30,153 nt of DNA from an archaeon. GTDB taxonomy: Archaea > Nanobdellota > Nanobdellia > Woesearchaeales > UBA9642. The stretch lies in the NCBI GenBank assembly GCA_043806035.1, contig JAZDHK010000009.1, forward strand, positions 1-30,153, read 5' to 3'. This document shows, piece after piece, positions 1,286 to 28,376 of the stretch (within the stretch, counting starts at the first letter, position 1; every line of letters starts with the position of its first letter). Both the position numbers and the translations under genes were made by a program. The notes under the pieces were generated by a model. It was not told where the DNA came from, searched no databases, and saw nothing but the letters and a program-made list of their open reading frames with translations.

Positions 1286-2248
1286 CTATTGCCGAGCAAA
1301 ACTTCCCGCAACGATCAAGGGGAAGACGATGCTCGCTTCCGCAACAATCTTCACGGCAACGCTGTCCACCTTGAGTTTCGCCCAGGTCTTGGCCTCTTCG
1401 GGATTCCCGCCAGAATCAGAGCCGTCATGCTCTGTCGCGGTCGTTATGTAGACGGCAGAGTCTGCTCCTCCTCTGAAGATGTTTGCGTTGAGGACGTAGT
1501 GCTTAGGCATGCCTCCTCCTAAAAATATGCAGCCGACGTTCTCTTGGGCGAGCATGAAGTCGATGATGCGCTTGTGGTCTTGAGCGACGTCGACGACAAA
1601 ATCACGATGGTTGTAGAGGAAGTAGTAGATGAGGTCGCCAATGCTGCCGTCCATGATGCCCGGGCAGAAGACAGGGATGTCGTGCTTTGCCGCCCAGTAC
1701 AGGTAGCTGCTTTCGTCATTGATAGCTAGCCCTAGCGCTTTTGTCAGTTGGGTGACGCTGATGGTCTTGTGCTCGTAGAGCTTGCTGAGCAAAGGGGTGA
1801 AGAACTGGTCAAAGTAGGCGTATCTGTCGTCGGGGACGAGGATGTTGCCTATCCTGGATATGCCTTGCTCTGCAAGAACCTTTCCGGGAATGTCGAAATT
1901 TCCTAGCTTGAACGTGCCTAGGCATTTGATGATGTCTTCTTCAACGCCCCCTGCCGAGGTGACGATGAGCTGGACTTTCTTATTTTTTACAAGATACGTT
2001 ATGATGTCTCTTAATCCTGAGCTGATGATGTTTGAGGTCATGCTCAGGCAGATGGTCGCTTTTTTTTCCAGCATGTCATTGATGATGCCTGTGCCTTTGC
2101 TGAGGTTTGCCGCCTGCAACCCCGTTGCATCGTATGCAGTGATGAATTCCTGCAGCGTCTGGTCTTTTGAGAAGTCGTGCCCTTTAATGTCCGTGTGCCC
2201 TTCAAGCCTGTTGAGCGTTTTGGGGGCGTAGTGCCGTATTTTTTCCAT
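1286..2248 (-). CDS. dhs: Deoxyhypusine synthase
   Basis: TSNIISSGLR, TSAGGVEEDIIK, RIGNILVP, DGSIGD, GGGMPKH, DGSDSGG-P-EA-TW-K motifs; start moved to ATG 2248, which follows SD AGGTGA. Confidence 0.95.
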   Translation of the reverse strand: MEKIRHYAPKTLNRLEGHTDIKGHDFSKDQTLQEFITAYDATGLQAANLSKGTGIINDMLEKKATICLSMTSNIISSGLRDIITYLVKNKKVQLIVTSAGGVEEDIIKCLGTFKLGNFDIPGKVLAEQGISRIGNILVPDDRYAYFDQFFTPLLSKLYEHKTISVTQLTKALGLAINDESSYLYWAAKHDIPVFCPGIMDGSIGDLIYYFLYNHRDFVVDVAQDHKRIIDFMLAQENVGCIFLGGGMPKHYVLNANIFRGGADSAVYITTATEHDGSDSGGNPEEAKTWAKLKVDSVAVKIVAEASIVFPLIVAGSFARQ

Positions 2249-2292
2249 GAGTATCACCTACGAAAAGTCTGGTGCGTATGCTGAAGAAGTGC

Positions 2293-5537: not shown

Positions 5538-6461
5538 TTAAAGCTTGCTAAAAATAGCTTTTGCTGATTTTTCGTTCGGCGCTTGGACGATGACTCGCCC
5601 GTCAGGGAAGAATGCGCAATTCGCACAGGAGAATGCGATAGTGAATTCTCTGAATGTCTTTTCGGATGCGTATTTTTTCTTGAGCGCAGGGTATGCTTGC
5701 GTTGTCCTGAATTGGAATGTCGTGCCGCCACAGAATGTGCTTGGCAGGGCAGTGCGCTGCATGAATTTTTTGTTGCAGGCAGGACAGTTTTTTCTCGGCA
5801 GAACACGAATTCTGTCGTACTGTTGCCGGATCAGGTCGACATGCGTAACGAACGGCTCGCAGGATTTTTCGATGAGAGTTCTGCATGCCTGCTCGCATGC
5901 CATGCCTGCGATGACGTGGACTATTGACCCGAGAACGCCTTGTGCATCGCACGAATCCTGCACGCTTGTCTCGCCCAGCAGGCAACGCAAGCACGGTTTT
6001 TTCAGCACGGGAAAGACAAATCCTCTTCCTTCGATGACCGCTGCGTGGATGAATGGTTTTTTTGTTTTGAGGCAGTAGTCGTTGAGCAGGAATCTCGTGG
6101 GAAAGTTGTCCGTGCCATCCATGATGAGCTGCGCTTTCTTGAGAATGTGAACGTTGTCTGCAAAAAGTTCAACGGCATGCAGTTCAAGCTGCACGTCCTG
6201 CCGTATCTGGCGAAGGTGCGTCGCGGCAGCGCTGACTTTTGGTTTGCCAACATCCGCTTCCGTGTAGAGTGATTGCCGCTGCAAATTAGAGAGCTCGACG
6301 ATGTCTCTGTCGATGAGGATGAGTTTCTTTATGCCCACCCTGCACAGAATCTCTGCCATGACACTGCCCAACGCGCCGATGCCCACAATAGCAACCGTAC
6401 TCTGCTCGATGACCTGCTGGGCGCGCTTGCCAATGACGGCTTCCTGACGGGAGTATCTCAT
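5538..6461 (-). CDS. ThiF/MoeB/E1-like adenylyltransferase
   Basis: MRYSRQ, GIGALG, DRDIVELSNLQRQ, two CxxC zinc motifs, SC active-site Cys, C-terminal CG...FPDGRVIV extension. Confidence 0.92.
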   Translation of the reverse strand: MRYSRQEAVIGKRAQQVIEQSTVAIVGIGALGSVMAEILCRVGIKKLILIDRDIVELSNLQRQSLYTEADVGKPKVSAAATHLRQIRQDVQLELHAVELFADNVHILKKAQLIMDGTDNFPTRFLLNDYCLKTKKPFIHAAVIEGRGFVFPVLKKPCLRCLLGETSVQDSCDAQGVLGSIVHVIAGMACEQACRTLIEKSCEPFVTHVDLIRQQYDRIRVLPRKNCPACNKKFMQRTALPSTFCGGTTFQFRTTQAYPALKKKYASEKTFREFTIAFSCANCAFFPDGRVIVQAPNEKSAKAIFSKL

Positions 6462-6467
6462 GGTCGT

Positions 6468-7118
6468 TCATCGTCTGAGCACAAAGAACGCGTGGTCCTT
6501 CTCGTAGGGATCGAGGTCTTTCCAGTCAACGACCGTGCCTTGCTGTTGGAGCTGCTGTAACACATCCTTATAGATGACTCTGGGATCTTTGGTGACGTCG
6601 ATGCTTCGTGCTTTGACGGCAAGGCAGGCGATGCCGCCTTTTTTCAAGAATCTGTTGATGTTCTTGATGAAGATCTCGACCTGGTTCTTCTGGGAAATGT
6701 CCATGTAGACGATGTCCACTTTTGGCAAGGGAGGGTAGTTCTCTGGATGGTTGGCATCCGCAAGCAACGGGGCTATGTTCTTGCGTTGTTCTGCGATGAA
6801 GACGAGCTCTCGCAGGACGGTTGGTGAGAATTCGATGGCGTAGATGTTCCCAGAAATGAGCATGTCGCTCAAGTGGCTGACGGTAGTTCCCGTGCTCGCT
6901 CCCAAGTACAGGATCGTTGCGTCCTCCTTGATGTCGAGGTTGATCTTCTTGAGTATGGCTGCACTGAGCTTGCTGCGCGTGGCATCCCACTCCCTGTATT
7001 CTGTGCCGTGCTCTCGCTTGACCCGCTCGCCGTAAACGCTCATTCCCGGGATTGCGTTTTTTGTGTAGATCCGTCCTTTATCGAAAAAGACGCCTTTCAT
7101 GGTGTGGTGGGGATTCAT
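6468..7118 (-). CDS. flpA: Fibrillarin-like rRNA/tRNA 2'-O-methyltransferase
   Basis: VYGE, EYREW...RSKL, LYLGASTGTTVSH, KARSIDVT, LDPYEKDH; ATGA overlap with the nop5 stop. Confidence 0.96.
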   Translation of the reverse strand: MNPHHTMKGVFFDKGRIYTKNAIPGMSVYGERVKREHGTEYREWDATRSKLSAAILKKINLDIKEDATILYLGASTGTTVSHLSDMLISGNIYAIEFSPTVLRELVFIAEQRKNIAPLLADANHPENYPPLPKVDIVYMDISQKNQVEIFIKNINRFLKKGGIACLAVKARSIDVTKDPRVIYKDVLQQLQQQGTVVDWKDLDPYEKDHAFFVLRR

Positions 7119-7831
7119 GGGAATTTTTCCTCGAGCTGCTTCCTGAGCTGGTCGCCAATGAATTGTCCCTTGAAGTAGTCGACACGTGCGGCGATGGCGA
7201 TCTTGTCAGCCAATGCTCTTCCCGCCCTGCCTTTCTGCTTTGCACGTGCGACGATGGGATGTTGGAGGATAAAGCCGTGCTTGGGCGGCTTGCTGTTCTT
7301 GTTGCGCATATGTCTAAACAGTGCTTTTTCTGCCCCTAAAAGTTGGATGGTGGAGCTGTGCACTTCTGCAAGTTTTTTGAGGCTGCCGACGGCGTCGATG
7401 AGCTTTGCACCAACTAATGCGCCGGTGACGGCAAGAAGATTAGGGCAATAGGCGTGCATGACTTTTTCCAGGTACTGCGTGAGCTTCTCTCTCAGAAGAT
7501 ATGCTTGCTTTGCCTGCTGGGCAAGGGCGAGCAGTGCGTCGTTGTCTGCTGTGCTGAGTTCTTTGCCCATGCTGTTCTTTGGCCTGAGCTCTTTCCAGTC
7601 TTTTGTAAGTATGGCGGTGATGAGCGCCTCGTGGTCAGAAAAAGCGTGCTCTGCTTCTGGCAGGGTGAGTGCAAGCCAGTGCCTGAATCGTTTGCTGAGG
7701 GCATTGCAGACTTTGTTGAGTTCTTCGATGGACTGTATGGTCTGCATGACGAGATTGTCATTGCTGATGCTGGCAGCGATGTCTTTCCTTACGTTGACAA
7801 GGAATTCCTGCCGTACCGTGCCAAAGTCCAT
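7115..7831 (-). CDS. nop5: C/D box sRNP protein Nop5 (short, Nop domain)
   Basis: CPNLLAVTGALVGAKLI, STIQLLGAEKALF, PPKHGFI, KIAIAARVDYF; directly upstream of fibrillarin. Confidence 0.93.
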   Translation of the reverse strand: MDFGTVRQEFLVNVRKDIAASISNDNLVMQTIQSIEELNKVCNALSKRFRHWLALTLPEAEHAFSDHEALITAILTKDWKELRPKNSMGKELSTADNDALLALAQQAKQAYLLREKLTQYLEKVMHAYCPNLLAVTGALVGAKLIDAVGSLKKLAEVHSSTIQLLGAEKALFRHMRNKNSKPPKHGFILQHPIVARAKQKGRAGRALADKIAIAARVDYFKGQFIGDQLRKQLEEKFP

Positions 7832-7873: not shown

Positions 7874-8425
7874 TTAGAATTCTTCAGCGGATCGTCTGCT
7901 GAGCTCTCGTCGTTGCCGCTCCAGCCACTTGTAGACGGAAGCGTGCGTGGAACCTTCGAGCAAGGAGAGCACTGCGCGCTTGGCTATGCTCATCTGGTCC
8001 ACTTGCCCGATGAGCGCTATGGTTTTGCCGTACACGCAGATGAAGCAGCCCGTCAGTTCTTCAATGGTCCGTCGTGACTTGCCATCAGCACCTATTACTC
8101 TGCCTTTCAGCCTGAGCAAGTGATTTTTTTGCTTGCTGTATTCTGCCAAGGAAACAATCTCGAGTAGGTAATCCTGCTTGAGCAGGAGTTTTGCCGTTTC
8201 TGGATTGAAGCCTCTGGCTATGGCCTTGATGACTTCACGCAGTTGATAGAGCTGCAAGGGATCCTTTCCCACGAGGGTGATGTCCCCTTCTTTTGAGTCA
8301 ACGCTCATTTTAGAGAGCGTTGCTTCCTCGAGTTCTTTCTTCGTAGAGCCTTCGACGCCGATGAGCACGGCTACCCTGTCTTTAGGGATTTTGAGCTCGT
8401 ACGCGAATTCCTCAGGACCGTCCAT
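7874..8425 (-). CDS. KH-domain rRNA-processing protein (Dim2/Pno1 family)
   Basis: IPKDRVAVLIG, KAIARGF, RLKGRVIGADGKSRRTIEELT, YGKT, GSTHASVY. Confidence 0.93.
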   Translation of the reverse strand: MDGPEEFAYELKIPKDRVAVLIGVEGSTKKELEEATLSKMSVDSKEGDITLVGKDPLQLYQLREVIKAIARGFNPETAKLLLKQDYLLEIVSLAEYSKQKNHLLRLKGRVIGADGKSRRTIEELTGCFICVYGKTIALIGQVDQMSIAKRAVLSLLEGSTHASVYKWLERQRRELSRRSAEEF

Positions 8426-8450
8426 GCGGCACGAAAACAGCCAATGCTTT

Positions 8451-9401
8451 TTAAACGTTGTGCTTGAGCACGTACGTAGAAATTTCTCGCAGGTCGAGCC
8501 ATTGCTTTTGCAGATCAGCCGGCAGTTGCCCGAACACTCTTGGGTCGGTCATGCCTACATGATAGCTGAGCTGTTCCCCTTTCTTGATATCGCGCAGTGC
8601 GAAGAAGTACGGCCTGAGATCGAGGTCAGTGTTGATGAAGAGGTTCGGTGCATCCGCTGTTCTCAAGTACCTTCCCGAGTACGCCCTCTCCAGCGAGGGG
8701 AGGAAATGCTGGTTTTCACCGACGAGTATGCTGTCCGTTCCTGGTGTTTTTGCAAGGCTGCCATTGAGCGTGAGCACTCTCGTCCCTTGCGCGAGGTCTT
8801 TTGCGGCAAGAAGCGCATAGTCTTTCTCCAACACCGTGCGCAAGTTAGCCAATTGCCGTTTCACATCCGAATCCAGCCACAGCTGGCCGTCCTGCGTCGG
8901 CCAGAGGGAGTAGATTGCTTGGACGATGGCGCACGCGACCTCTCCTTTGTTCTGTATGCCGATGATACTCTGTCCGTGCTTGTCGAGACGTTTTGGCGTG
9001 GTGGTGCACATCCTGTCGAGATCGGCAGTGATGCTCTCTTCCATGGTACGTTTTCCTTCTTCTTCGCTGGAGAAGATGCCGTGTTCTTCCACAAGATAGC
9101 CGCTGTTGTCGGAGGATGATTGTCGCCAGCCGAGTCCTGCGAACGCCCACTGTCCTGGTTCGTGCGCGTATTCGTCGACGAAGACGGATTCCGCTTTTGC
9201 CCCCCAATAGATGTTGCTCAAAAAGATGGTTTCTTTAGCTATTGGAGCGTGCTTTGGGAGTTCGGGCAGGACAGAGGAGTAGTTGACGATGTTGAAGTTG
9301 TGCGTGCCTGCAGCGTAGAGTGCGAGGTGCAGTGCGGACTTCACGCCGGGGCCTTGCCCTGCACCTTTGACGACGATGACGTTCTTGAGTGGGTTGTTCA
9401 T
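8451..9401 (-). CDS. Pyruvoyl-dependent arginine decarboxylase-like domain fused to a degenerate SET domain (316 aa)
   Basis: N-terminal G-G-G...AL..AG..NFNIVNYSSVLP (Ser-Ser cleavage site) and GYLVE; C-terminal LLAAKDLAQG...RYLRTADAPN...FALRDIKKGEQLSYH SET signature; gcATG start at 9401. Confidence 0.8.
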   Translation of the reverse strand: MNNPLKNVIVVKGAGQGPGVKSALHLALYAAGTHNFNIVNYSSVLPELPKHAPIAKETIFLSNIYWGAKAESVFVDEYAHEPGQWAFAGLGWRQSSSDNSGYLVEEHGIFSSEEEGKRTMEESITADLDRMCTTTPKRLDKHGQSIIGIQNKGEVACAIVQAIYSLWPTQDGQLWLDSDVKRQLANLRTVLEKDYALLAAKDLAQGTRVLTLNGSLAKTPGTDSILVGENQHFLPSLERAYSGRYLRTADAPNLFINTDLDLRPYFFALRDIKKGEQLSYHVGMTDPRVFGQLPADLQKQWLDLREISTYVLKHNV

Positions 9402-9447
9402 GCAAGAGAGAAATGCTGTTCTATTCAAAAATCTTTACTTTTTTATG

Positions 9448-9684
9448 CTACTTCAGGGTGACGATTGCATTGATGTCTTTGAGCAGCTGCTCGAACACGT
9501 CATCAGGCATGCCGTGACCCTTGCAGCCTTCTTCCAACGTCTCAAACGGAGAGAGGTGGCAGCCGATACAGTGCAGCCCGTATTCGAAAAGCACAGGGAC
9601 GACAGAAGGGAATTTTTTTGCAATATCCGCGAGGAGCATGTCTTTCGTTATACTGTTGGATTTTTGGCTTGGTTCAGGGCTCAT
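9448..9684 (-). CDS. DUF1858-domain protein
   Basis: ITKDM..ADI...P....VL..YGLHCIGC....FETLEEGC..HG; start at 9684, 20 nt after TTTAAAAT. Confidence 0.85.
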   Translation of the reverse strand: MSPEPSQKSNSITKDMLLADIAKKFPSVVPVLFEYGLHCIGCHLSPFETLEEGCKGHGMPDDVFEQLLKDINAIVTLK

Positions 9685-9753
9685 GGTTGAGCGTAGTCGC
9701 ACGAATTTTAAATAGTTAATGGTGCATAGTCTGTACTGCCAAGGACGCACGTC

Positions 9754-9775
9754 AAAAAAAAAGAAGAAATAAAAG
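9754..9775 (-). terminator. Oligo-U terminator of the propeller/KaiC operon
   Basis: T-rich minus-strand run just after the stop codon at 9780. Confidence 0.5.
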
Positions 9776-9779
9776 AAGT

Positions 9780-10589
9780 TTAGAGCAGCGGCGTCTGGCC
9801 GCCGTACAAGGCGTGGAATTTGCCGTTCTTGAACTCCAATGAGTAGACGTCGTGGTTGCATTCTGTCGCTCGCATCTTCACGATGCTGACTTCCCGCACC
9901 ACATTCCTCCTGAATCGGGTGAGGCTGAGGTGGATGATGCCATCCGAAAGGAAGTCCTCAACACCATATTCGGAATACTGCAATACCCCTATCTCTTTCT
10001 CCCGCATCTCCGAGATGAGGAAGGTCGTGACGTTCTCGTCCCTGAAGAAGTCGAAGATGAAGAACAATTCATCCCGTACTTTGCTCTCGTCGAACTTGTT
10101 GAGCACGTACAGGGCAGAGAGGCTGTCCAGGACAAAGAGGTCGCAGCCGAGTATTTCCTTGACGCGTTTGATGATGTTCTTGATGACGTTCAGCCAGCCG
10201 CTGCCTTGCGAGGGTGTAGCCACATCACGGATCTGCTTCCTGATTGTGCCGACATCAACGATGATGACCGTTCCCGATTTTTTGTCAGCGACTTTTGAAA
10301 GGTCGGTTTTGAGCTTGGCGAGGTCATTGATGATGATGATATCAACGCTCTTAAGGTCCATGCCCATGGTCAGGATGTGTCGCATCAGACTTTCCGAGCT
10401 CTGCTCAAGGCTCACGTACAGGCCGACTTTCTTGAAGTTCAGTGCCTCGTTGAAGAGGACGTTGAAGCAGATGCTGCTCTTCATCGTGCCTGCCGATCCC
10501 GAGATGAGGATGACATGCCCTATGGGAATGCCGCCCATCATGTTGCTGTCCAGTTCAGGAATATACGTTTTTACTCGTTCGTCTGCCAT
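9780..10589 (-). CDS. Single-domain KaiC/RAD55-like RecA-superfamily ATPase
   Basis: Walker A variant GSAGTMKS, YVSLE, Walker B VLDSLS, EDFLSDGII, VKMRAT; SD AGGTGA 5 nt before ATG 10589. Confidence 0.88.
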   Translation of the reverse strand: MADERVKTYIPELDSNMMGGIPIGHVILISGSAGTMKSSICFNVLFNEALNFKKVGLYVSLEQSSESLMRHILTMGMDLKSVDIIIINDLAKLKTDLSKVADKKSGTVIIVDVGTIRKQIRDVATPSQGSGWLNVIKNIIKRVKEILGCDLFVLDSLSALYVLNKFDESKVRDELFFIFDFFRDENVTTFLISEMREKEIGVLQYSEYGVEDFLSDGIIHLSLTRFRRNVVREVSIVKMRATECNHDVYSLEFKNGKFHALYGGQTPLL

Positions 10590-10594
10590 GTGCA

Positions 10595-11845
10595 TCACCT
10601 ACTATGAATGATATTCTTGACTATGCCTTTGTCGGTTATGACGATAATCTGGTTGGCGTCATCTATCAGACCGCAGCCGACGATGATGCCTTCCGTCTGG
10701 TATTGCCAGAGCTTCTTGCCATACATCTCTCCAGGGTTTGCCGTCATGACTTCGTTGTAATGCCCCGTCTGAGCGGTAACTCCTGAAATGCCAGGGACGT
10801 AGTCGAGGATGTAGCTTCCTTTGCTGTCCAAAACGTAGAGACTACGGTCGTAGCTGCCGAGGATGATTTCGGGAAGGCCATCCCTATCTATGTCTCCGAT
10901 GAGCAAGGGTGCAACAACCCAGAAGTCAGTCTCGAAGCTCCAGAGTTTTTTTCCCTGATAGTTGAGCACGTATGCGCGATTATCACAGCTGCCGAAGACA
11001 ATCTCGGGTTTGCCGTCCTTGTTGATGTCTGCAACAGTCGATTTGCTGACGATGGCGCCTTCTGCAGTGAACCGCCAGAGCTCCTTGCCTGATTCGTCAA
11101 CCGCATAGAGTGTGTTGTCGTGCGCCCCGACAAGAATTGCCGTGGTGTCCAGCTCTGCGAAGATGGGTTGGGCAGTGATTTGGTCCTGGACTTTGAAGCT
11201 CCAGTTCACGATGCCTTTCTCGGAGAGGGAGATGAGCCTGCCGTCCTTTGTGCCGAAGAGGACGTGCGTTTTCTTGAAGGAGGCCACTGCAGGGATGCTG
11301 GTGATTTCGCTGCCCGCATCGAATGCCCAGATCATCCTCCCTGTACTGTCGAGGACGTACAGCTTCTTGTCGTAGCTGCCAAAGATGATGTGCTTTGTTC
11401 CTCCCTTGGTGAATTCGTGCACGCACGGCGTTCCCTTGATGGGGCCTCCTGTCTTGAACTTCCAGAGCAATTTCCCGTCAGGGGTGAGTACGTGCAGGTT
11501 GCCCTGTTCCGTGCCGAAGATGATGTTCTTTCTTCCCGTGTCGTTCAGGTCCGCTACTGCGGGTGGTGAGCTGATGCTGTTGCCCGACTCGGCATCAACG
11601 AAGAAGGTGTCGACCTCGCCGAGTTTTTCTGTTGCATCGTACTTCCAGAGCATCTTTCCCTCGCTGTCCAGGACGAGAAGCTGCCCTGACTTCGTACCGA
11701 GAATGATTTGTTTTTTGCCGCTGCCTAAGAGGTCTGCGATGACGGGGCTGCTGATGATGCTGTCTTTCGTGTCATATTCCCACGCAACCAGGAGCCGTCC
11801 TGTTTTTTGGCCGCTGATTTTCCTGAATAAGTCCGCCACACCCAT
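10595..11845 (-). CDS. Beta-propeller protein with PQQ-type and FG-GAP-like repeats, no signal peptide
   Basis: Repeated G-D--LYVLD--GK-LW-F-T blades and ADLND-G/DINKDG/DIDRDG loops. Confidence 0.88.
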   Translation of the reverse strand: MGVADLFRKISGQKTGRLLVAWEYDTKDSIISSPVIADLLGSGKKQIILGTKSGQLLVLDSEGKMLWKYDATEKLGEVDTFFVDAESGNSISSPPAVADLNDTGRKNIIFGTEQGNLHVLTPDGKLLWKFKTGGPIKGTPCVHEFTKGGTKHIIFGSYDKKLYVLDSTGRMIWAFDAGSEITSIPAVASFKKTHVLFGTKDGRLISLSEKGIVNWSFKVQDQITAQPIFAELDTTAILVGAHDNTLYAVDESGKELWRFTAEGAIVSKSTVADINKDGKPEIVFGSCDNRAYVLNYQGKKLWSFETDFWVVAPLLIGDIDRDGLPEIILGSYDRSLYVLDSKGSYILDYVPGISGVTAQTGHYNEVMTANPGEMYGKKLWQYQTEGIIVGCGLIDDANQIIVITDKGIVKNIIHSR

Positions 11846-23528: not shown

Positions 23529-25037
23529 CTAATTACGCGTCTTAATAGTGAGCGTACCTTTCTCCACGGCAGCCTGCACGAGCCTTCCTTCTTTCGTGCG
23601 TTTTTTGAAAGAAAAGCTTCCGTCTTCTGCAGTCGTCCTTGCCAACAAGTCATTTCCCGAGAACAGTTCGACCGTTGCGGCCGTGGCGTCTGTTGAGAAA
23701 TGCACGTCCTGGTCATCGCTGCGCACTGTAAACGGAAGTGTACGTGCGGATGCGGTGATGATGGCGTCCTTGTCGAGCACGTGCAGGACGGTCGTGTCTT
23801 TGCCGTCGCTGATCGTGATGGTTGTGCCCTGCATGCGCAATGCAGAGACGCTCTTGACCTGCCCTGCGGCAATGTGTATGATGTGCGTGATGAGCGAGGG
23901 GAGCAGGCTTGGCTCTATTTTGCCGATGAATCGCTGCACTGCCTGCGCGGGATGTTCTGCATGCATGACTACGGCAACAGAAATGCCCGAAAGGCGCAGA
24001 TCGCAGAAGAGCCTGATGTCGGAGAGGGTGCGTGCCTCATCGAAGATGACATTGTCTGGCCTGGAGAGTAGCATGATGTCGTGCAAGTCTTGGGGTGTCG
24101 CGTGGTGCAGGGAGAATTTTGTGATGGCCGCGTTTACAACGAGGTCTCGCGGGCTTTCGATAGTTTTTACTATGCGCTGCTGCTGCACGTAGTGGTTGGC
24201 GAGCGCTTGCGCGAAGGTTGTTTTTCCCTCGCCTGGTCCGCCGATGATGAGCAGTCCTTTGCTTGCGAGCACATGTTTTTCGCCTTGAAAGGAATAGTCT
24301 GTAAGCTGCAATTGCTTGAGATGTGTTGATGCAGTGATCTCATACCCGTCAGTGAGTGGTGGTTTGGTGATGAGCACTCTGTACTTGCCTGCTTGGGCGA
24401 GGGTTGTCCCTTTCTGTTCCCATTCGAGGAAGCCGTCCTTTCGTGATGCCGTGTCTTCGACGATTTGCGTCGAGAGCTTGCGCATGGCATCCCTATCGAG
24501 GCGTTCATCTCCTAAGGGGATGAGTGTCCACGATCCAGGCTTTCCCTTTTTTGCTTGCGGGGTGCATCCTTCTCTAATGATGACTGCTGCCGTGTTTTCG
24601 TCAAAGTATTTTTCGAGCACGAACGGAGTCTCGGTGATGGTGAATTCTACCAGGATGACGGGTATGCCTTTGCTCTCGGCAACGCTGGCTTGCACCTTGT
24701 CTGCGGTGATGAGCGTTGCGTGCTGCTCGAATGCGTACTGCCTGATTAGAGAATCGATGCCGCCTTTTGCGGCGTTCTTGATGTCGAATTCGCTGGGGCG
24801 CTCGCCCGCATACTGCAGGGTTATCGTTCGTTCCTTGCAGATCTGCCTGAGCTTTTTTATCTCTTCAAGGCCGAGTTGTCCTGTCTCCTTGTTCCTGTTC
24901 GCTTGCGCCTCGAGCTCGTTGATGACTGCTTCGTGGATGAGTAGAGTGGTGCAGGTGAGGCTGCCTTCGAGGATGCGCTTGCTCAGAATTCCCTCGATGA
25001 TGACGGAGGTGTCGGGAACGAGTTTGTCCACGTGCAT
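23529..25037 (-). CDS. PIN-domain ATPase (PINA/ATPase-PilT family), divergent C-terminus
   Basis: PIN motifs VPDTSVII, ELE, ID, LITAD; Walker A GGPGEGKTT, KTIESPRDL, RPD...FDEAR. Confidence 0.88.
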   Translation of the reverse strand: MHVDKLVPDTSVIIEGILSKRILEGSLTCTTLLIHEAVINELEAQANRNKETGQLGLEEIKKLRQICKERTITLQYAGERPSEFDIKNAAKGGIDSLIRQYAFEQHATLITADKVQASVAESKGIPVILVEFTITETPFVLEKYFDENTAAVIIREGCTPQAKKGKPGSWTLIPLGDERLDRDAMRKLSTQIVEDTASRKDGFLEWEQKGTTLAQAGKYRVLITKPPLTDGYEITASTHLKQLQLTDYSFQGEKHVLASKGLLIIGGPGEGKTTFAQALANHYVQQQRIVKTIESPRDLVVNAAITKFSLHHATPQDLHDIMLLSRPDNVIFDEARTLSDIRLFCDLRLSGISVAVVMHAEHPAQAVQRFIGKIEPSLLPSLITHIIHIAAGQVKSVSALRMQGTTITISDGKDTTVLHVLDKDAIITASARTLPFTVRSDDQDVHFSTDATAATVELFSGNDLLARTTAEDGSFSFKKRTKEGRLVQAAVEKGTLTIKTRN

Positions 25038-25069: not shown

Positions 25070-26941
25070 TTATCGGCGCTTGAAGGCGTTGCGCACTGAT
25101 TGGGAGAATGATGCCAGCCACAACTCGACTTGTTCGCCAAAGCTTAGATCCGTGAGTTTGATGACGATGCTGTGCTGTGCAACATATATTTTTTGCCGGG
25201 CATCAAGGTAGGAGACGGTGATGGTGAAGGGTGTGGCTTTCTTGCTCAAGTGCCTTCCCGTGAATGCCACGGATATGGTTTCCTTGCCGATGCTCGAATA
25301 ATTCCATTGCTCGTCGATGAAGCCGCCTTGCAGTTTGATGGTGATGTTTTCTGGAGGGCTTGCAGGATCTGGCTCGAGCGTGAACCTGATGATTTCCTTG
25401 TCATCATAGTGCATGCTGACGGGATAGGTGACGTCAGTGATGCTGATGGTAGGTGGGGGGATGACTCTGATGGGCAGGAATGCACTGCCTTGCTCAGTTG
25501 TGAGCAGTAGCGTTGTGGGTCCTATGGTTGTTGGCGTGTACGTGAGGGTAGTGTTCGTGCACGTGTTTTCTAGGCAGAAGGGAACAGGGCAGGAAATGAT
25601 TGCGGTTTCTTGCGGGTAGAGCACGTCATGGTCTGCTTCGCACACGACGGGCTGCTTGTCCGGAGGCTGCATGACGTACTGGTCTGCTATGGCTTCTGTC
25701 ATGAACTGCCCTCGTTGGCTTGCCGTGAAGCTCGCCTGCGCAGAGCCGTTCAGGCCGTCATACACGACGATGGGAAACGTGTACGTGTACTTGTCTTCTA
25801 GAGCGCTGCTCACGTGCACTTTCGCATAGAGCTTCTTTTCCTTGCCCGGCCCGAGCACGACGAACCAGCTTTGCTGGGAGAACGTGAGTTCTTCCGTGTT
25901 CGCGAGGAAGATGCGTTCCATGACGTAGTATGGCTGCGGATTCTTGAGGTTGATGATGATGACGTTCCACGAATTCTTTATTACTTCTCCCAGCCAGGGC
26001 GTCACTCTCTTTTCGAGAAGGGGTTGCTGCTGCCCGTTCTGGTCGAGCACGTCTATCTTGTTGGTTATGGGCCCGGTGCTGAGCTTGAGGTCCCTGCTCT
26101 GATACTCGAAATTGACTGCTGACGTTATGGCATCGTTGCTCTGCTCGAGGATGATGTGCGTCGCATCAACATAGCCTAATTCCGAGTAGGCGATGTCGAA
26201 GGGTATCCAGCCCTGGTCGGGGAGGTAGACTTCCGCCCATGCATGATTCACCCAGGGTTCGCTGAAAAGATCATAATTGGTGTAGGCGATGCCTGACATG
26301 TACCTGGCAGGGATGCCAACGCTTCTGAGCATGCTGATGAACAGGCTCGTTATCTCATCGCAAACGCCGTATTTGTTCTTGAAGACCCAGCTGCTCGGCT
26401 GGGCGACGTCCGCAGTTAGCGTGCTCAGATTGTACTTGACGTTCTCGTGGATCCAGGCGGCGATGCTGCCGATGACTTCGTACGCGTCGTTGCTCTGCGA
26501 GAGGGTAACTGCCTGCTTTCTCATCTCTGGGCTGACGTCCAAGTGTTCTGTCGTGAGCAGGTACTGCGTGAGTTCCGGATCGAGGCTTTGCAGGGGGAAG
26601 GGTATTCGTTCTTTCACTTGCGGCCTGTACGTGTTCGTGCTGAGCAGTGCCTGCACTTGGTACGTGAACGGCTCTGGCTTTTCGAAGGTGAATGCCAGCG
26701 TGTCCGTGCCCTGCGCTGGCGGAATGGGGATTAGTGAGATGACGTTTTGCCCGCTGATGCTTTTGGGGAAGTGGTGGAGCTTGACGTTGAGATACTCGAG
26801 CTCGGGATGTTGGCCTGTGGTGACGAAGCTTCCCGTGCCTGTAGACGTGAAATTCATGCTGAGCGTGTTTGCATGCAGCACGCTGTCATCGAGCGCCAGA
26901 GCAAGGGGGATGAGTAGGAGCAGGAGCAGTATTGCCTTCAT
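25070..26941 (-). CDS. Secreted transglutaminase-like (cysteine protease fold) protein
   Basis: Signal peptide MKAILLLLLLIPLALA; triad GVCDE / HAWAEVY / WIPFD; beta-rich C-terminal domains. Confidence 0.88.
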   Translation of the reverse strand: MKAILLLLLLIPLALALDDSVLHANTLSMNFTSTGTGSFVTTGQHPELEYLNVKLHHFPKSISGQNVISLIPIPPAQGTDTLAFTFEKPEPFTYQVQALLSTNTYRPQVKERIPFPLQSLDPELTQYLLTTEHLDVSPEMRKQAVTLSQSNDAYEVIGSIAAWIHENVKYNLSTLTADVAQPSSWVFKNKYGVCDEITSLFISMLRSVGIPARYMSGIAYTNYDLFSEPWVNHAWAEVYLPDQGWIPFDIAYSELGYVDATHIILEQSNDAITSAVNFEYQSRDLKLSTGPITNKIDVLDQNGQQQPLLEKRVTPWLGEVIKNSWNVIIINLKNPQPYYVMERIFLANTEELTFSQQSWFVVLGPGKEKKLYAKVHVSSALEDKYTYTFPIVVYDGLNGSAQASFTASQRGQFMTEAIADQYVMQPPDKQPVVCEADHDVLYPQETAIISCPVPFCLENTCTNTTLTYTPTTIGPTTLLLTTEQGSAFLPIRVIPPPTISITDVTYPVSMHYDDKEIIRFTLEPDPASPPENITIKLQGGFIDEQWNYSSIGKETISVAFTGRHLSKKATPFTITVSYLDARQKIYVAQHSIVIKLTDLSFGEQVELWLASFSQSVRNAFKRR

Positions 26942-27443: not shown

Positions 27444-28376
27444 TTGCCCGTACTTCCTTCAGGCGTGATAGACTCAATCATTAACTGTGATAACATTTCA
27501 GCAGCGGATGTTGTCTTGCTCGCCGCAAATTATGACAGGACCTCTTCTTTCGGGAAAGGCGCGGACAAAGGCCCTCAAGCAATAAAGCGGTGCTTGGATG
27601 GGCAGCTGGAATTGTATGATCCGTATACGGGAACCACTCCAACACAGCTGTACAAGATAGCATATCATGATCTTGGCGACCTTAACTACTTGCGGCCGGA
27701 AGAGATGGTCAGAAAAGTTGCGGAAGAATTCAAAAAACTGTATTGTGCAGGCAAATTTGTGGTAAGCTTGGGTGGCGAGCACTCAATATCCATAGCGCCA
27801 TTCCGTGTTCTTGCAGAAAAGAATCCGCAAGAAGTTACTGTTTTGCAGATTGATGCGCATGCTGACTTGCGGGATGATGATTCTGATTATGCGGACGAAC
27901 CTCATGGCAAGTATGCGCATTGCTGCGTGATGCGACGCGCTCACGAGCTGGGCTTGAAGACTGTCCAGGTGGGCATACGGGCGTATTCTGGAGAGGAGCA
28001 AGCATTCATGAAGGGCATGACTGTATTCAAATGGAACCAGGAAAGACTGCCCGCTGTTGAAGAAATAATTGAGGCCATTACGACAGAGAACGTGTATCTT
28101 ACACTCGATGTTGATGGTATCGATCCTGCGCACATGCCTGCGACGGGCACGCCCGTTCAGGGAGGGCTGAGCTGGCAGTACACGCTTAATTTGTTATACC
28201 GGCTGGCATGCCAGAAGAACGTTCTTGCCGCCGACATTGTTGAGGTGGCTCCCCGCAGCACTGATGCATTGACAGAATACGGCGCTGCCCAACTCTGCTA
28301 CAACCTCATCGCGTGGAACATGCCCCACATTCTTCCTGACGCACGCCAGGAATGCAAACACTCCTACGCAAGATGA
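27444..28376 (+). CDS. speB: Agmatinase (ureohydrolase); start uncertain (TTG 27444, or ATG 27417 with an in-frame TAG)
   Basis: YDRTSSFGKG...GP.AI, GGEHS, DAHADL, VGIR, DVDGIDP, TGTPVQGG, DIVEVAP. Confidence 0.92.
   Translation: MPVLPSGVIDSIINCDNISAADVVLLAANYDRTSSFGKGADKGPQAIKRCLDGQLELYDPYTGTTPTQLYKIAYHDLGDLNYLRPEEMVRKVAEEFKKLYCAGKFVVSLGGEHSISIAPFRVLAEKNPQEVTVLQIDAHADLRDDDSDYADEPHGKYAHCCVMRRAHELGLKTVQVGIRAYSGEEQAFMKGMTVFKWNQERLPAVEEIIEAITTENVYLTLDVDGIDPAHMPATGTPVQGGLSWQYTLNLLYRLACQKNVLAADIVEVAPRSTDALTEYGAAQLCYNLIAWNMPHILPDARQECKHSYAR

Follow-up and report, generated by a model that had tools for sequence, protein, structure and literature searches.

What kind of protein arises when a pyruvoyl-dependent arginine decarboxylase (PdaD) is joined to a SET domain whose methyltransferase motifs appear to be gone? 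The question is posed by a gene on the minus strand (8451..9401) of a 30,153-nucleotide stretch of DNA from an archaeon of the order Woesearchaeales (assembly GCA_043806035.1, contig JAZDHK010000009.1); this whole analysed stretch is called the window below. The product, P0001, had been described from the letters alone (the sequence-only reading) as a PdaD-like domain followed by an eroded SET domain, and every motif quoted for it was found at the place given. Both folds are recognizable in P0001, which is encoded in a single open frame; a second protein, P0002, has the same architecture and similar motif states, and genes of a polyamine pathway lie in the same window. We propose, with moderate confidence, that P0001 forms agmatine as a functional decarboxylase and that the SET-derived domain on its alpha chain is non-catalytic and serves in binding or regulation.

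The frame comprises 316 codons plus stop (ATG at 9399-9401, stop at 8451-8453). An alternative in-frame TTG start at 9428, adding 9 residues, is possible; because P0002, with its identical domain order, aligns from amino acid (aa) 7, we take the ATG to be the start in use. The gene is laid out as follows:

8451..9401, minus strand: PvlArgDC-SET fusion gene (P0001), the whole open reading frame (ORF) with PvlArgDC domain, linker and SET-like domain
8898..9386, minus strand: PvlArgDC domain, aa 6-168 (Pfam, Foldseek, model confidence mostly >90)
9327..9329, minus strand: His25, in the column where the family conserves an Asp (Asp35 in M. jannaschii PdaD; alignment)
9273..9278, minus strand: Ser42-Ser43, the predicted self-cleavage site (alignment to 1n2m, family columns)
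9087..9089, minus strand: Glu105, counterpart of the catalytic/processing Glu109 of M. jannaschii (family column)
8844..8897, minus strand: linker, aa 169-186 (low-confidence model region)
8454..8843, minus strand: SET-fold domain without catalytic motifs, aa 187-316 (Pfam, phmmer, AlphaFold2, Foldseek)
8655..8663, minus strand: Arg247-Thr248-Ala249 (RTA) replacing the SET Asn-His-Ser, followed by Asp250 replacing Cys (alignment)
8556..8561, minus strand: His281-Val282 replacing the SET Asp-Tyr of the ELxFDY motif (alignment)

The N-terminal half proved to be PdaD-like, as had been claimed. It matches nearly the entire Pfam profile PvlArgDC (PF01862) with 65.8 bits (cut-off 22.7). An AlphaFold2 model of full-length P0001 was built on a mixed alignment of 15 PdaD and 60 SET rows, of which 15/15 and 58/60, respectively, were placed on the right domain; it reached a mean predicted local distance difference test score (pLDDT) of 83.5 and a predicted template modelling score (pTM) of 0.63, with aa 8-167 mostly above 90. 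In Foldseek, the proenzyme of M. jannaschii PdaD (2qqd/1n2m) matched this model over 166-167 columns (E 2e-12, TM score by target 0.77-0.81), and the N-terminal half of the model shows the four-layer alpha-beta-beta-alpha proenzyme fold. A structural-atlas comparison likewise assigned aa 1-171 to PvlArgDC and returned SET clusters at a feature score of 0.79, a value that serves as a lead only.

The residues expected for self-cleavage and catalysis, Asn37, Ser42-Ser43 and Glu105, are intact in both P0001 and P0002 as far as the alignments tell. The phmmer alignment to 1n2m_A runs at a constant offset of 10 and pairs His25 with Asp35, Asn37 with Asn47 and Ser42-Ser43 with Ser52-Ser53, where 1n2m, being an S53A mutant, has Ala in the Ser53 column. 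Family columns were taken from a MAFFT alignment of the query and its best phmmer matches (148 proteins, 146 besides the two fusions). Among these 146, the column of Asn37 reads N in 145, those of Ser42 and Ser43 read S in 142 and 144, and that of Glu105 reads E in 142; its M. jannaschii counterpart Glu109 has a catalytic/processing role according to PMC2720952. Cleavage between Ser42 and Ser43 would split the protein into a 42-aa beta chain and a 274-aa alpha chain, the latter with the SET-like domain. Three losses at conserved columns are common to both fusions, namely D25H, R135T (P0001 has Thr135 where 128/146 family members have Arg) and the terminal Trp.

The C-terminal half is predicted to adopt a SET fold. 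The Pfam check suggested by the sequence-only reading, which succeeded for PvlArgDC, gave a divided answer here: P0001 scores 20.8 bits against SET (PF00856; E 5e-4, aa 245-289 of the 325-aa form), slightly below the cut-off of 22.4, whereas P0002 exceeds it with 23.6 bits. In a phmmer search of 1.84 billion representative proteins, the C-terminal half matches the canonical SET proteins P0024 (E 2.5e-9) and P0149 (E 5.6e-5), and a three-way alignment with P0149 spans the domain from 'KDLAQGTRVL' to the C-terminal 'F..LP......Y.L' tail. A profile made from both C-terminal halves and P0149 finds 125 proteins at E<=1e-3; among the 120 of these that were listed, PF00856 is present in all except the two fusions. 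Furthermore, an AlphaFold2 model of aa 165-316 (80-row alignment) reached a pLDDT of 82.3 and a pTM of 0.78, and Foldseek returned at least 296 PDB matches for it at E<=1e-3. The matches listed are SET enzymes, the best of which are MLL1 (E 1e-6), MLL3/4, SET8, NSD, EZH2 and BurB. The proposed SET-like nature of this half is thus borne out by structure prediction and fold comparison.

What sets this domain apart is the state of its motifs, which we compared with those of 78 canonical SET relatives (S-adenosylmethionine is abbreviated SAM):

GxG SAM-binding motif, first G (G in 70/78): D194 in P0001, A in P0002
GxG SAM-binding motif, second G (G in 72/78): A196 in P0001, G in P0002
Q (72/78): L226 in P0001, R in P0002
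NHSC motif, N (76/78): R247 in P0001, R in P0002
NHSC motif, H (77/78): T248 in P0001, T in P0002
NHSC motif, S (76/78): A249 in P0001, S in P0002
NHSC motif, C, the fourth zinc ligand (77/78): D250 in P0001, E in P0002
G (71/78): F255 in P0001, F in P0002
DY motif, D (72/78): H281 in P0001, H in P0002
A (68/78): G283 in P0001, G in P0002
Three post-SET Cys (77/78 each): deleted in P0001, deleted in P0002

The NHSC counterpart thus reads RTAD in P0001 and RTSE in P0002, and the Tyr of the DY motif is Val in P0001 (SYHV) and Gln in P0002 (TYHQ). The replacement of NHS by RTA and of DY by HV, as well as the missing post-SET Cys cluster, had all been noticed beforehand and are seen again against the 78 relatives; the cluster is typical of this SET subfamily, not of every SET domain. 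P0001 retains the structural positions A199, G214, P252, N253, A268, R270, I272, E276 and Y310. Judged from the alignment, the loss takes in the SAM-binding elements, the catalytic Tyr and the four zinc ligands at once. Since the SAM-binding and catalytic residues and the zinc lid are gone, the SET half cannot plausibly transfer methyl groups.

Is this decay? Between the two fusions, identity rises from 36.9% (aa 1-168) to 45.9% (aa 169-316) and peaks at 68.8% in aa 243-290, which makes the SET core their best conserved part. R247, T248, F255, H281, G283 and the Cys deletion are common to both proteins, which are 42% identical. The same replacements and the highest identity across two sequences this far apart argue that the remodelled pocket is conserved rather than drifting. 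As such, the SET half looks like a maintained pseudo-enzyme domain, not a decaying one.

All of this depends on the fusion being real. P0002 has 309 aa, stems from a Joint Genome Institute (JGI) metagenome contig of 1188 nt and forms a singleton cluster named 'pyruvoyl-dependent arginine decarboxylase'. It matches P0001 over aa 7-316 (E 4e-66, 42% identity) with the same architecture end to end, and in the phmmer search it is the sole protein besides the query below E 1e-30. That P0001 is an assembly or frameshift artefact joining neighbouring genes could be suspected on account of the 42-contig assembly and of the read support, since a single DNA run of depth 3-5, possibly from the source sample, holds the stretch. 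Yet P0002 comes from a different metagenome, neither half has a stand-alone copy in the genome (no second PvlArgDC or SET match was found there), and a Logan contig piece from that run is identical to 8517-8968, without mismatches or indels, across the domain boundary at 8897/8898; 8448-8516 and 8969-9128 are without contig cover. No stop or misassembly was thus seen at the junction, where the sequence-only reading had placed a possible weakness, and an artefact is scarcely credible.

The fusion is known from two sequences, both metagenomic. No protein other than P0002 covers both halves among the 150 phmmer matches listed, and a near-length word search with the whole of P0001 returned nothing besides itself. 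Contigs of species-representative genomes gave no further fusion; each of the 10 loci found there is a bacterial SET gene whose match stays inside aa 196-287. Two metagenome contig scans gave none either, though P0002's own contig was also missed. A whole-protein search of 40 relatives found no fusion and N-terminal matches only, in 9 of them. The search for the same architecture that had been recommended was extended with the C-terminal half to 400 further genomes of the phylum, again without an additional fusion; the five weak matches (20-24 bits) are stand-alone SET proteins in which NHSC or NHAC, DY and the Cys cluster are all intact. A PvlArgDC-SET fusion was described nowhere in the literature searched, which lay outside subscription journals and InterPro architecture tables. 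Hence, the claim of a real and rare fusion has stood, with one other instance.

The residue at position 25 needs separate treatment. That the family's Asp is replaced in P0001 was correctly seen (His25 aligns with Asp35), but the fusion is not alone in having this change. Across the 148 aligned proteins this column holds Asp in 134 (hence in 134/146 of the others) and His in 11; Asn, Ala and Tyr occur once each. The 11 His forms comprise the two fusions plus nine proteins that stand alone (151-192 aa); one of the nine, from an Aenigmarchaeota metagenome-assembled genome, is named arginine decarboxylase at its source. In addition, seven stand-alone PdaDs of the sister genus g3 in the same family (L003, L005-L009, L011; 176-210 aa) read '..SYHLAL..', and P0269, another protein of this family, is of the His type as well. 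In the sister-genus genomes, the His-type PdaD is the sole PvlArgDC copy. Glu occupies the position in two relatives, one from genus g5 of the same family and one from another family of the order.

His at position 25 goes together with an aromatic residue at position 102, three before the catalytic Glu, in 8/11 cases as opposed to 7/137 of the other proteins (Fisher p 2e-7, with kinship among sequences ignored). In a FastTree phylogeny of 153 decarboxylase domains, at least 10 changes are required to account for the His state; the tree is poorly resolved (9/150 branches well supported, long-branch warnings), and no supported branches speak against a single origin. The His type could thus represent either an arginine decarboxylase variant that is tolerated or a distinct specificity class. 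Either way, the PdaD variant with His for Asp and an aromatic residue for Leu is much commoner than the fusion, and it counts as an arginine decarboxylase by default annotation.

The pathway in which P0001 would act is marked in the window by two further genes:

27444..28376, plus strand: agmatinase gene, the likely consumer of the product (equivalog TIGR01230, 213.4 bits, cut-off 174.3)
1286..2257, minus strand: deoxyhypusine synthase gene, for polyamine-dependent modification of aIF5A (Pfam DS, 333 bits; TIGR00321, 322 with a cut-off of 304)

In the genome assembly (1.50 Mb, 42 contigs, completeness 93.7%), P0001 is the sole PvlArgDC match, and neither an Orn/Arg decarboxylase of the pyridoxal phosphate type nor a spermidine synthase was found in the whole genome. 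A comparable set-up has been proposed for Haloferax volcanii, where, according to PMC5178350, an agmatine-based set of arginine decarboxylase, agmatinase-like protein and deoxyhypusine synthase would serve aIF5A deoxyhypusination without spermidine; the PdaD, agmatinase and deoxyhypusine synthase of our genome resemble it. Over 19 genomes of the family, deoxyhypusine synthase is present in 19/19 and PvlArgDC in 13/19, with one match each, while agmatinase passes its cut-off in this genome only. TiaS domains were sought as well: neither TiaS_TCKD nor TiaS_FLD was found in this genome, and TiaS_TCKD was found in 0/19 family genomes. Deoxyhypusine synthase in 19/19 genomes without TiaS_TCKD raises, as a separate matter, the question of AUA decoding and of the aminobutyl donor of deoxyhypusine synthase.

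Altogether, we picture P0001 as a protein that would self-process as a PdaD-type pyruvoyl-dependent decarboxylase, with Ser43 becoming the pyruvoyl group upon cleavage, and that, once processed, would most likely make agmatine from arginine. Its 274-residue alpha chain would bear the pyruvoyl group together with the C-terminally attached SET-derived domain. This domain would have its origin in a small, free-standing SET methyltransferase with the motif series 'NHSC...FDY...CxCxxxxC...LPxE'. It would act as a binding module that regulates or localizes the decarboxylase, either by sensing a small molecule or by offering a surface on which proteins dock. We infer self-cleavage, the arginine substrate, the absence of methyltransferase activity and the regulatory role from the features above; a binding module is the most likely role because the domain appears non-catalytic and yet is under stronger constraint than the decarboxylase half.

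What might such a module bind? The conserved, polar, rebuilt pocket suggests a ligand, and BurB, a SET-domain methionine S-methyltransferase, offers a precedent: according to PMC12542666, this small bacterial SET domain binds the free amino acid Met, mainly via main-chain contacts, while His93 and His138 hold the SAM adenine and Y124A nearly abolishes activity. The sequence-only reading had thought of a sensor of SAM or decarboxylated SAM, which is rather disfavoured, since the SAM-contacting GxG and NH and the post-SET lid are precisely the parts that are lost. A pocket remodelled for another ligand would agree better with the replacement residues common to both fusions. Taken furthest, the SET fold would have been turned into a metabolite-sensing or substrate-capturing domain, its pocket rebuilt with Arg247, Thr248, Asp/Glu250, Phe255 and His281, that has arginine, agmatine or some other metabolite of the polyamine pathway as its ligand and thereby gates the decarboxylase; we regard this specific version as rather unlikely. 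If true, this would be the first case of a metabolic enzyme with an allosteric domain derived from SET, and part of an unrecognized wider pattern of polyamine pyruvoyl decarboxylases fused to methyltransferase folds. Docking of the aIF5A target lysine by the SET half was also considered and set aside, as the SET channel Tyr is lost.

Several observations weigh against a regulated agmatine-forming enzyme. P0001 misses the NCBIfam arginine decarboxylase equivalogs (TIGR00286, 42.8 with a cut-off of 106.95; NF009064, 34.2 with a cut-off of 207). It retains 22 of the 34 columns that are conserved in at least 80% of the family and has changed the other 12. Its His25 stands where the great majority of the family reads Asp, a residue that in PdaD (Asp35) we take to contact the substrate guanidinium, so that arginine may not be the substrate. 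In the sister-genus genomes with a His-type PdaD, no agmatinase passes its cut-off, so agmatinase does not accompany the His type in general. Agmatine could in principle come from elsewhere, as the genome has two atypical AdoMet_dc-like ORFs, one of 290 aa (L013 1447-2319, minus strand, = G000:C35; Pfam 44.5 bits, NCBIfam 41.2 with a cut-off of 75.65) and one of 123 aa (L014 1384-1755, plus strand, = G000:C33; a weak 21.6 bits); by eye, neither has the Glu-Ser cleavage motif that we presume to be usual for AdoMet_dc. In the full-length model the two domains do not pack confidently (pTM 0.63; linker pLDDT 51-63); across aa 171-210, successive blocks of 10 residues average 63, 52, 51 and 58. Finally, no RNA run containing the stretch is listed among the sequencing runs.

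P0001 might instead have another chemistry, in which the His-type domain decarboxylates a different basic or modified amino acid that the SET-derived domain helps to capture, and P0001 is no agmatine synthase. His25 for Asp and Thr135 for Arg are both common to P0002, His together with an aromatic residue at 102 looks like a coordinated active-site change, and the scores against the arginine decarboxylase equivalogs are low. However, the His forms are scattered over the (poorly resolved) family tree with at least 10 changes and are the sole PvlArgDC copy in the sister-genus genomes, the agmatinase gene in the window needs agmatine, and no other type of arginine decarboxylase was found in the genome; we therefore consider a different substrate unlikely. 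The 12 changed columns, taken with the loss of every SET catalytic motif, would also suit a scaffold or regulator made of two former enzymes. That both halves are dead is distinctly improbable, given that Asn37, Ser42, Ser43 and Glu105 are intact in both fusions and that this is the genome's sole PvlArgDC, with an agmatinase in the same window. At the other extreme, the SET-like domain might still be a methyltransferase with unorthodox motifs that, e.g., N-methylates agmatine, a thought encouraged by proteins in which PdaD is fused to intact methyltransferases (P0084, P0101) or an intact SET domain to AdoMet_dc (P0239). But a complete GxG, the Asn-His, the Tyr and the zinc lid are absent from both fusions (P0002 keeps the second G), and BurB holds SAM with His93 and needs its Tyr124, as stated in PMC12542666, two residues that we assume to match the changed NH His and DY Tyr; methyl transfer is very improbable. 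We thus retain the agmatine-forming decarboxylase with a non-catalytic SET-derived domain.

Many archaea enter the synthesis of agmatine and polyamines through PdaD, for which the literature searched yielded no regulatory domain. A conserved, catalytically stripped SET domain on a decarboxylase would exemplify a methyltransferase fold reused for binding. Moreover, the fusion would give a handle on how agmatine supply is controlled for aIF5A modification in small-genome archaea without a detectable spermidine synthase.

The gene content of the window is archaeal, and the P0001 gene belongs to a co-directional run on the minus strand that also contains:

9780-10598, minus strand: KaiC-like gene
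9448-9861, minus strand: DUF1858 protein gene
7874-8425, minus strand: KH-domain protein gene
7115-7831, minus strand: Nop5 gene
6468-7118, minus strand: fibrillarin gene
5538-6461, minus strand: ThiF-family protein gene

As listed, the DUF1858 ORF shares 82 nt with the KaiC-like ORF; the DUF1858 domain begins at aa 71, and the real start is probably an internal Met. The Nop5 ORF has just 238 aa, of which aa 38-237 match the Pfam Nop domain, and the N-terminal Nop5 domain was not matched. Elsewhere in the window, a 502-aa PIN-domain protein with an NTPase-like region (23529-25037, minus strand) adjoins a 623-aa transglutaminase-core protein (25070-26941, minus strand).

How does P0001 compare with known systems? 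With PdaD (PF01862; M. jannaschii 1mt1, 1n2m, 2qqd) it has in common the fold, the Ser-Ser site, the Asn, the Glu and the size of the catalytic domain. It differs from PdaD in having His for Asp35 and Thr for the conserved Arg at 135, in the 12/34 changed columns, in scores beneath the NCBIfam equivalog cut-offs, and in a C-terminal extension of ~148 aa (aa 169-316, ~130 aa of which form the SET fold), whereas typical members have ~150-200 aa. The small stand-alone prokaryotic SET methyltransferases (PF00856; P0149, P0152 and L027 of the same archaeal class) have the fold in common with P0001 and are alignable over its entire domain; in contrast to them, P0001 has GxG, NHSC and DY replaced and CxCxxxxC deleted, and its domain is located behind a decarboxylase. 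BurB (PDB 9l4t, 9l4v) matches the SET half in fold at E 4e-6 to 6e-6, a likeness that rests on fold, without a residue alignment, and BurB, unlike P0001, binds SAM and is an active enzyme.

The closest parallels in composition are other fusions. P0084 and P0101 join an Asp-type PdaD to a C-terminal methyltransferase, PrmA-like class I in the former and of the NNMT/PNMT/TEMT family (114.5 bits) in the latter. The Leptospiraceae proteins P0239 (301 aa) and P0240 (281 aa) consist of an intact SET domain (Pfam, 62.3 bits) and a C-terminal AdoMet_dc domain (78.6 bits), so that SET and a pyruvoyl decarboxylase were fused independently a second time; the SET domain of P0239 is intact in NHSC, FDY and Cys cluster, and its cluster comprises 10 sequences on 10 contigs. 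Two further proteins have C-terminal additions of another kind: P0110, an Asp-type PdaD, has ~250 aa without a Pfam match, and P0269 (L025 1188-2300, minus strand, = G015:C2) has a His-type PdaD domain (99.8 bits) and a ~190-aa extension. The latter was tried as a SET-like domain and rejected, as it shows no similarity to the C-terminal half of P0001 and no Pfam match; its atlas structure rows are receiver-like at TM 0.35-0.42, too low for naming. No publication on any of these domain combinations was found in the literature searched. Like P0001, P0084, P0101 and P0239/P0240 each combine a pyruvoyl decarboxylase of the polyamine pathway and a SAM-dependent methyltransferase fold in one chain, and these cases indicate that the two have been joined several times. 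Yet the methyltransferase motifs of P0084 and P0101 look intact and their PdaD keeps the Asp, while P0239 has intact SET motifs and the opposite domain order. Judged by its motifs, P0001 is the case among these fusions with a disarmed methyltransferase. In summary, P0001 is a new and rare domain-architecture variant, represented by two sequences, of a known enzyme.

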